Positions 7,211 through 7,430 of a stretch of DNA of 64,000 nucleotides are shown here, piece after piece. Origin of the DNA: Candidatus Micrarchaeota archaeon (GTDB lineage: Archaea > Micrarchaeota > Micrarchaeia > Anstonellales > Bilamarchaeaceae); contig JBDRCX010000006.1 in the NCBI GenBank assembly GCA_043821365.1, positions 320,001-384,000 on the forward strand, given 5' to 3'. The notes below the pieces were generated by a model. It was not told the origin of the DNA and searched no databases. It saw nothing but the letters and a program-made list of their open reading frames with translations. The position numbers and the translations under genes are program-made. Position 1 is the first letter of the stretch. Each line of letters opens with the position of its first letter.

Positions 7211-7294
7211 GTCAAAATTTCTGAAAGAAATTTTAACTTGTACTTGAACGGTAATCCGTTCAAGATTCGCGAAAATTCTTCGAATTTTCACGAT
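7211..7294 (+). ncRNA. Conserved three-hairpin tRNA 5' leader, copy 1
   Basis: Six sequence blocks are identical to 48802-48883, with different self-complementary loops. Confidence 0.8.

Positions 7295-7430
<136 letters not shown>

Follow-up and report, generated by a model that had tools for sequence, protein, structure and literature searches.

The window analysed here is a stretch of 64,000 nucleotides (G000:C6:320001-384000) from the 1.2-Mb genome (36% G+C, 87% complete) of a member of the Micrarchaeota from groundwater. It carries two collinear copies of a three-hairpin cassette, at positions 7210-7294 and 48801-48881, each stopping just before the first base (G1) of an intron-bearing tRNA gene, Leu(CAG) in the first case and Ser(GCT) in the second. 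ARAGORN called no tRNA in the raw window because of the introns, and Rfam at its gathering threshold returned a single one, a match of RF00005 to the Leu gene (7295-7430, 43.6 bits), the Ser(GCT) gene being missed because of its intron of ~129 nt. Once the introns had been spliced in silico ARAGORN called Leu(cag) and Ser(gct), in agreement with the identities given by the first-pass annotation. The boundaries of the Leu intron match a contig of the public run X3 that joins 7316 to 7369 and comes from an intron-less relative; the Ser(GCT) orthologue of the closest relative (G024; nearest named record 'uncultured archaeon LFW-283_2', 87% amino acid identity in a neighbouring gene) is also intron-less and matches both exons of the Ser gene in the window.

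The tRNA genes are heavily interrupted throughout the genome, and their introns are built of hairpins of the type stem-CTTTTT-loop-AAAAAG-stem, followed by CCAAAAC and a closing GTTTTGG; in this genome as in relatives, hairpins of this type also adjoin G1 of several tRNAs. On the practical side, hairpins and introns together make standard tRNA finders overlook most tRNAs in genomes of this sort.

Three types of hairpin module are distinguished by their sequences: A (CTTGAA..TTCAAG with a GAACG..CGTTC core), B (AGTCAAGAA..TTCTTGNC) and C (TCGCG..CACGA). The features of the two loci, in window coordinates and with scores from a promoter weight matrix (PWM), are:

7142..7152, plus strand: putative TATA box of tRNA-Leu(CAG), an A/T run just past the stop of the upstream ORF; PWM 5.7, >99th genome percentile; 153 nt before G1
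7188..7207, plus strand: hairpin 0, A-type (TTTGAAGC / loop CGCA / GCTTCAAA), in the Leu(CAG) copy only
7210..7238, plus strand: hairpin 1, B-type, C.A mismatch at the third pair; 5 stem positions changed on both sides among 4 copies
7243..7264, plus strand: hairpin 2, A-type, CTTGAA..TTCAAG base and GAACG..CGTTC core; 45/45 cells standard pairs, 4 positions changed on both sides
7267..7293, plus strand: hairpin 3, C-type, TCGCG..CACGA with a conserved C.A mismatch; unpaired T at 7294 between hairpin 3 and G1
7295..7429, plus strand: tRNA-Leu(CAG) with a D-loop intron (about 7317-7368); RF00005, and ARAGORN after splicing
48761..48769, no strand assigned: A/T box lying between the Ser cassette and the start (48739) of a divergent minus-strand ORF; PWM 3.9; candidate shared or bidirectional TATA box
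48801..48827, plus strand: hairpin 1 (B-type) of the Ser(GCT) copy
48832..48850, plus strand: hairpin 2 (A-type) of the Ser(GCT) copy
48853..48880, plus strand: hairpin 3 (C-type) of the Ser(GCT) copy, separated from G1 by T at 48881
48882..49093, plus strand: tRNA-Ser(GCT), interrupted at 37/38 by an intron of ~129 nt (about 48920-49048); acceptor/T-arm search, and ARAGORN after splicing

The six sequence blocks that the first-pass annotation had described as identical and collinear are all present at both loci (7211-7296 and 48802-48883), and the additional hairpin it had placed before the Leu copy, at 7188-7207, is real. The end position it had given for the cassette needs adjustment by two bases: the cassette directly abuts the gene, as stated, but its last base is 7294/48881 and G1 is 7295/48882, so that the final GC of the last block belongs to the tRNA as bases 1-2. 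The intervening parts had likewise been described as different and self-complementary, which applies to the upper stems of hairpins 1 and 2, where the changes covary, but not to hairpin 3, whose stems are identical in both window copies and whose loop alone differs. There are exactly two occurrences of the hairpin-3 pattern in the window, and none in 100 shuffles of it. In RNA folding predictions the Leu(CAG) stretch forms four separate stem-loops (-39.2 kcal/mol, z -6.5 against shuffles) and the Ser(GCT) stretch three (-27.0 kcal/mol, z -4.6); folds of the whole precursors keep the cloverleaf, with the leader hairpins independent of it and a single U between hairpin 3 and the acceptor stem, and they contain no leader-trailer helix, no leader-body helix and no bulge-helix-bulge (BHB) motif at G1.

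Further copies of the cassette and covariation in their stems

Our comparisons covered 40 genomes of the genus and metagenome contig material including contig L118, together with a scan of viral contigs, which gave no match to the cassette. A third full copy lies on another contig of the same genome (G000:C3:26727-26812, minus strand) and stops 1 nt before G1 of tRNA-Leu(tag), i.e. Leu(UAG). The closest relative has a partial copy, consisting of the A and C modules (hairpins 2 and 3), in front of its Leu(CAG), and L118 has a five-hairpin version ahead of a Leu(TAG), with a hairpin 3 identical to that of the Leu(UAG) copy and a hairpin 1 that keeps the stem base while its upper stem is different yet still complementary. 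Exact hairpin 3 was found in only 2/40 genus genomes, the pattern search over these genomes otherwise yielding mostly chance matches in coding DNA. Covariance model R1 matched many generic three-hairpin arrays, on both strands, in 33/40 of them, and therefore hairpin arrays, rather than the cassette itself, are common in the genus. The public runs in which the locus could be traced included no RNA run; DNA contigs assembled from such runs contained a paralogous copy only, breaks of the assembly at the cassette edge and one intron-less relative, and no informative variation.

When the stems of all copies are anchored at their bases, 140/151 stem cells are standard pairs, ten stem positions have changed on both sides with pairing kept, two G-C pairs have become G.U and every loop is different. 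These counts come from stems anchored by hand, because the alignment to the covariance model misplaces some stems and contains a reverse-strand row. The first-pass annotation had counted an absence of covariation in additional copies as half of what would speak against its reading; the ten double-sided changes are such covariation. It had also pointed to conserved C-A mismatches in hairpins 1 and 3, and these prove invariant in 4/4 copies of the former and 5/5 of the latter, accounting for 9/11 of the non-pairs. As judged from the aligned sequences, hairpin formation is maintained, and the conserved part of the modules is the base of the stems, including a mismatch.

Rfam searches with the leaders, at gathering as well as permissive thresholds, returned the tRNA only, all other matches having E >=0.4 and lying far under their gathering scores, and neither C/D boxes, ACA boxes nor a k-turn were found in the leader. 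A motif from the end of the leader, TTTTCACGA, recurs right behind the 3' end of tRNA-Leu(UAG) (G000:C3:26620-26641) and also within the intron of the tRNA at C6:14158.

Module families elsewhere in the genome

The hairpins of the cassette are members of module families that are distributed over the whole genome, at the 3' ends of protein genes, in mRNA 5' leaders and in tRNA introns and trailers. Hairpins 0 and 2 belong to the CTTGAA..TTCAAG family, of which there are about 49 hairpins with a stem of >=8 bp genome-wide, about half of them falling in non-coding DNA, which itself makes up ~8% of the genome. The GAACG-N4-8-CGTTC core (e.g. window 7246-7261) occurs 32 times against 2.4 expected; these palindromes are mostly intergenic, with many different stem bases around one core. 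An A hairpin is typically joined through a fixed linker to a B hairpin in a unit of about 54 nt, and nine such A-B units are present, several of them immediately 3' of protein genes. Hairpins 0 and 1 of Leu(CAG) form together one A-B unit resembling these. At a site unrelated to tRNAs, between two convergent genes (G000:C6:72428-72600), the 54-nt unit is repeated in a threefold tandem array whose A hairpin is near-identical to hairpin 2, from which it differs in the loop but not in the flanks. A-type hairpins are also present inside tRNA introns. An apparent enrichment of this type at tRNA loci vanishes once measured against non-coding space, since its frequency there is not above that in other non-coding DNA.

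In the trailer of tRNA-Phe (window 1296-1315, minus strand) a T-run, a GC hairpin and an A-type hairpin are followed by the A/T box of the next gene; this A-type hairpin combines the hairpin-2 stem of the Ser leader with the CGCA loop found in hairpin 0.

Of the C type there are seven TCGCG..CACGA stem bases in the genome, all of them upstream of a gene start and in sense orientation. Three stand before tRNAs, a fourth is found between two genes, and the remaining three are contained in a block of ~110 nt, 93-95% identical, that reaches the start codons of the genes for AlaRS, a GCD14-like methyltransferase and ribosomal protein L4. The copies of this mRNA leader block are:

L104:70-260 (G000:C6:20194-20299), minus strand
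L105:50-240 (C6:476254-476357), minus strand
L106:55-245 (C1:8377-8499), minus strand

Each block has two hairpins closed by a GGGG/CCCC helix, its own GGAGGG Shine-Dalgarno sequence and one C-type hairpin, and at 2/3 loci a copy of GAGGGTTTTG lies just upstream, in the manner of a duplication. Rfam gave no match to the block, and its three copies are confined to this genome among the 40 genus genomes searched.

Turnover among relatives, promoters and processing

The Leu and Ser isoacceptors are ancient. The cassette leaders in the genome are 77-85% identical to each other, while the mature tRNAs behind them share 65-72%; on these identities the cassette is younger than its tRNAs and independent of them. 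Its composition varies by whole units, from A-C in the closest relative to B-A-C and A'-B-A-C in our genome and B-(X-Y)-A-C in L118, whose inserted X-Y unit occurs elsewhere in our genome too. Leu(CAG) thus has a tandem of A'-B and A-C, and Ser has B plus A-C. The A-C unit adjoining G1 is the constant core and is found at Leu loci in at least three organisms. The other Leu and Ser tRNAs of the genome are without the cassette.

Orthologous loci differ strongly at this junction. The Ser(GCT) gene of the closest relative has the same divergent neighbour gene and the same A/T box (48761..48769 in the window), yet neither cassette nor intron, and its Leu(UAG) gene has a different hairpin module, of the stem-CTTTTT-loop-AAAAAG-stem type, touching G1. 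At Leu(CAG) there are four hairpins in our genome, two in the closest relative and none in G004 and G007, whereas G015, G006 and G022 have one unrelated hairpin of that same CTTTTT/AAAAAG type. In relatives a hairpin commonly lies 0-3 nt ahead of G1. Three-hairpin arrays were also observed abutting tRNA 3' ends in relatives from the genus (L071, L073, L069, L077), and therefore both ends of tRNA genes attract hairpin arrays.

In archaea the leaders of pre-tRNAs are as a rule short and without special features. An A/T box that begins between -33 and -39, as is usual for archaea and leaves a very short leader, was seen at 11/29 tRNA genes here; at the cassette tRNAs there is none at this distance. 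According to a crude PWM trained on those eleven boxes, the best sites lie upstream of the cassette, at -153 in Leu(CAG), -121 in Ser and -166 in Leu(UAG), with scores of 5.7, 3.9 and 6.2, respectively. The Leu(CAG) box is found at the canonical -35 in G004 and G007, which are devoid of the cassette, and at -55 in G015 with its single hairpin; its canonical distance in the hairpin-less relatives makes the hairpins look inserted between promoter and gene.

Components of RNase P are present in the organism, namely a candidate RNase P RNA, with a full-length match to RF00373 (E 1.6e-9; 37.5 bits, which is under the gathering score of 84), and Rpp29 (82.8 bits); RNase III was not found in the genome, which is 87% complete. 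RNase P contacts the single-stranded leader close to the cleavage site. As modelled, hairpin 3 abuts the acceptor stem through one unpaired nucleotide and would be a substrate of unusual geometry, and if the cassette is transcribed, the RNase P of these ultrasmall archaea faces a helix beginning two nucleotides before its cleavage site.

Origin and possible roles of the cassette

A mosaic repeat that spreads and forms a long leader of tRNAs seems to describe the cassette better than a device dedicated to tRNAs. We favour, with a probability of roughly 0.55, a mosaic, duplicative cassette of hairpin modules lying between promoter and tRNA, which is probably transcribed as a leader and removed by RNase P. 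The block of 85 nt would accordingly be a composite, present in this genome in three diverged copies, in which two two-hairpin units of an interspersed mosaic repeat follow each other in tandem, with the A-C unit beside the tRNA kept as its core and B, A'-B or other units gained or lost upstream. It may have been copied between tRNA 5' flanks fairly recently, with a quick turnover among related species. Transcription would most likely start from the ancestral upstream TATA box and produce a structured leader of about 85-120 nt, to be cut off by RNase P at G1, and the cassette would persist because this position is harmless, hairpin formation and the motifs at the base of the stems being maintained. 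Of the three options offered by the first-pass annotation, that of an element inserting at tRNA 5' ends agrees best with our results, given that the leaders are more conserved than the tRNAs, are missing or replaced at orthologous loci and draw their hairpins from genome-wide families.

Several observations fit this reading poorly. No transposase, terminal inverted repeat, target duplication or reverse transcriptase accounts for the spread, and the copy numbers are far under those of classical REP or MITE families. The A-C core at Leu loci of at least three organisms is hence not merely transient, and the invariant C.A mismatches and conserved stem bases resemble a constraint beyond hairpin formation. 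Finally, all three copies in the genome have exactly one junction with the tRNA, CACGAT-GC, which disfavours random insertion; it could result from copying along with the first tRNA bases, from sequence-guided insertion or from selection.

An alternative, also among the options of the first-pass annotation, is a functional cis-acting leader, in which the C-type hairpin, and perhaps the B-type one, would be recognised by an RNA-binding protein or by the processing machinery and would tune the maturation or expression of a set of translation genes (tRNA-Leu, tRNA-Ser, AlaRS, tRNA methyltransferase and L4). We regard this as possible but doubtful. The C.A mismatches stay constant among copies whose upper stems covary, hairpin 3 has its peculiar position one nucleotide from the acceptor stem, relatives likewise place a hairpin next to G1, and the seven C-type hairpins all lie in sense upstream of gene starts, three of them in tRNA and three in mRNA leaders. 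Two sets of three among these seven are homologous, however, which reduces them to about three independent occurrences. Moreover, the cassette is missing at the Ser(GCT) and Leu(UAG) orthologues of the closest relative as well as at the remaining Leu and Ser tRNAs of the genome, and the restriction of the 110-nt mRNA leader to a single genome is unlike a conserved regulon.

It is unlikely that what has been copied is a mobile promoter. The 3' arm of hairpin 1 (AAATTTTAAC) would then be the TATA box, transcription would start near -35 and hairpin 3 alone would be in the RNA, hairpins 1 and 2 being promoter DNA copied along with it. The A/T run of hairpin 1 does lie at -67 to -62 in all copies, which would set the start just before hairpin 3, and in the Leu(CAG) locus its PWM score (3.5) is near the 99th percentile; in relatives, single-hairpin leaders are laid out as TATA box, about 30 nt, hairpin and G1, and reuse of upstream regions before non-homologous genes is known (PMC3575422). 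The ancestral box of the Ser gene, too, predicts a start inside hairpin 1, and therefore the transcribed status of hairpin 1 at Ser is uncertain. Nevertheless, all three loci have a better PWM site upstream of the cassette, hairpin 1 scoring only 1.0 in Ser and 1.7 in Leu(UAG); the A-C pair of the closest relative lacks hairpin 1 and so must be read from the upstream box, and the compensatory changes in the stems of hairpins 1 and 2 are unexpected of a TATA box and spacer.

Distinctly improbable, in our view, is an element of the DNA level or of the opposite strand, whose minus-strand hairpins would act as IS200/IS605- or REP-type single-stranded DNA inserted 3' of CCCC(T/A)GC, or as antisense RNA. 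Predicted folds are stronger for the minus strand (-47.8 vs -39.2 and -36.2 vs -27.0 kcal/mol) because both conserved C.A mismatches turn into G.U, but the Leu(UAG) copy, with two plus-strand G.U pairs, balances the comparison of strands, and in all three mRNA leaders it is the sense strand that has C.A. Genome-wide counts of G.U vs C.A pairs are 9 vs 3 in tRNA bodies and 10 vs 9 in leaders, in small and non-independent samples. The A-B units run antisense to the tRNA-leader orientation in four unambiguous protein-gene contexts, yet the Leu(CAG) and Ser cassettes have no minus-strand gene ending in their vicinity. Identical junctions beside a common GC(A/T)GGGG would fit sequence-guided insertion, and the genome encodes one Y1 (IS200-type) transposase (Y1_Tnp; 149 aa, 106.6 bits; L066:1465-1914, i.e. 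G000:C3:96623-97072); this gene, though, is flanked on both sides by unique GC-rich subterminal hairpins that have no other copy in the genome and are unrelated to the modules.

A stable small RNA, freed by RNase P and acting in trans as a guide or regulatory RNA, as the first-pass annotation had also proposed, finds a precedent in the dicistronic sRNA-tRNA transcripts of Nanoarchaeum (PMC3491384) and would suit the strong and conserved fold, but is very improbable in view of the absence of Rfam matches beyond chance, of C/D or ACA boxes and of a k-turn, the low conservation of apices and loops, where a guide would sit, and the differences by whole units among relatives.

Known systems resembling the mosaic cassette that we favour are the bacterial REP/BIME (REPIN-RAYT) elements, the transposing tRNA introns of archaea and promoter reuse; it lacks defining features of each of the first two. 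With REP/BIME it shares short imperfect extragenic palindromes, frequently directly 3' of genes, a clustering into mosaics whose linkers are fixed, hairpin potential held by compensatory change and a single Y1 transposase gene in the genome. In contrast to them, there are here tens of copies per family and not hundreds (~49 A-type hairpins, 32 cores, 9 A-B units and 3 cassettes), units are tandem and in one orientation where REP units alternate, neither a GTAG nor a CGTC head appears in the aligned units, conservation lies in the stem base and leaves the apex free, the transposase is not flanked by modules, the host is archaeal, and the modules are inside tRNA leaders and introns. A link of the REP-RAYT kind was rejected on the unrelated flanks of the transposase gene; a GAACG-type hairpin pair is found on a single side of it, 130-175 nt upstream, where the preceding ORF ends. 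Direct repeats indicating target duplication were not found around the three cassettes, and the MITE features (terminal inverted repeats and target-site duplications of fixed length) are absent from the aligned flanks of the 9 A-B units and the three cassettes. TnpB is represented by a fragment only, and no reverse transcriptase was found in the genome at its 87% completeness.

Mobile BHB introns are known in tRNA genes of the Thermoproteales (PMC4090602, PMC4033280), and the cassette resembles them as a near-identical non-coding insert at different tRNA genes within one genome. It differs from them in lying outside the mature tRNA and ending at -1, with no evident BHB, and therefore needs RNase P and not the splicing endonuclease. 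ARMAN/Micrarchaeota tRNAs are known to be heavily disrupted (PMC3239211, which does not mention leaders or hairpins); as in that lineage with its many non-canonical introns, disruption is extensive here, and one set of hairpin families is present in introns and leaders. Promoter reuse, reported as 'putative mobile promoters' (PMC3575422), also entails homologous upstream regions before non-homologous genes of a single genome; here, unlike there, the likeliest promoter lies upstream of the cassette, which is a string of covarying hairpins, archaeal and linked to tRNAs. Partial copies of tRNA 5' ends that lie upstream of tRNAs beside hairpin modules in this genome (15 nt for Leu(GAG), 9 nt for Gly) resemble those left by kilobase insertion elements with a recombinase, but the three cassette copies show no duplication of the tRNA end.

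What distinguishes the present case is that unrelated tRNAs have leaders of 85-150 nt made of interchangeable, covarying hairpin modules which are also found in introns, trailers and mRNA leaders. It is tempting to speculate, if only tentatively, on an undescribed archaeal system that places itself at the 5' boundaries of genes (tRNA base 1, or the Shine-Dalgarno sequence and start of mRNAs), being either a site-specific non-autonomous mobile element, possibly tied to processing by RNase P or the splicing endonuclease, or a cis-regulatory code of hairpins that is peculiar to the lineage and common to tRNAs and genes of the translation machinery, in which the stem base with its C.A mismatch would be the identity element. 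If the cassette is mobile, the idea of transposing tRNA introns extends to tRNA flanks, and it would provide a tractable case of non-coding insertions colonising sites made harmless by RNA processing, with a bearing on the origin of disrupted tRNA genes.

Two minor observations concern hairpins outside the cassettes. At G000:C6:768343-768476 an A-type hairpin and one of the GTAAAAAT type abut a 15-nt copy of tRNA-Leu(GAG) bases 1-15; the true tRNA-Leu(GAG) gene starts 69 nt past this copy, which forms a long hairpin with a complementary stretch. Partial copies of tRNA 5' ends beside hairpin modules were also seen in the C6:475075 region, at C1:21654 and in L038 (Bilamarchaeum). A separate family, built of an A-run, a GGAAC-type stem and a T-run (e.g. 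G000:C6:713303-713324, AAAAAGGAC cttg GTCCTTTTT), resembles bidirectional intrinsic terminators.
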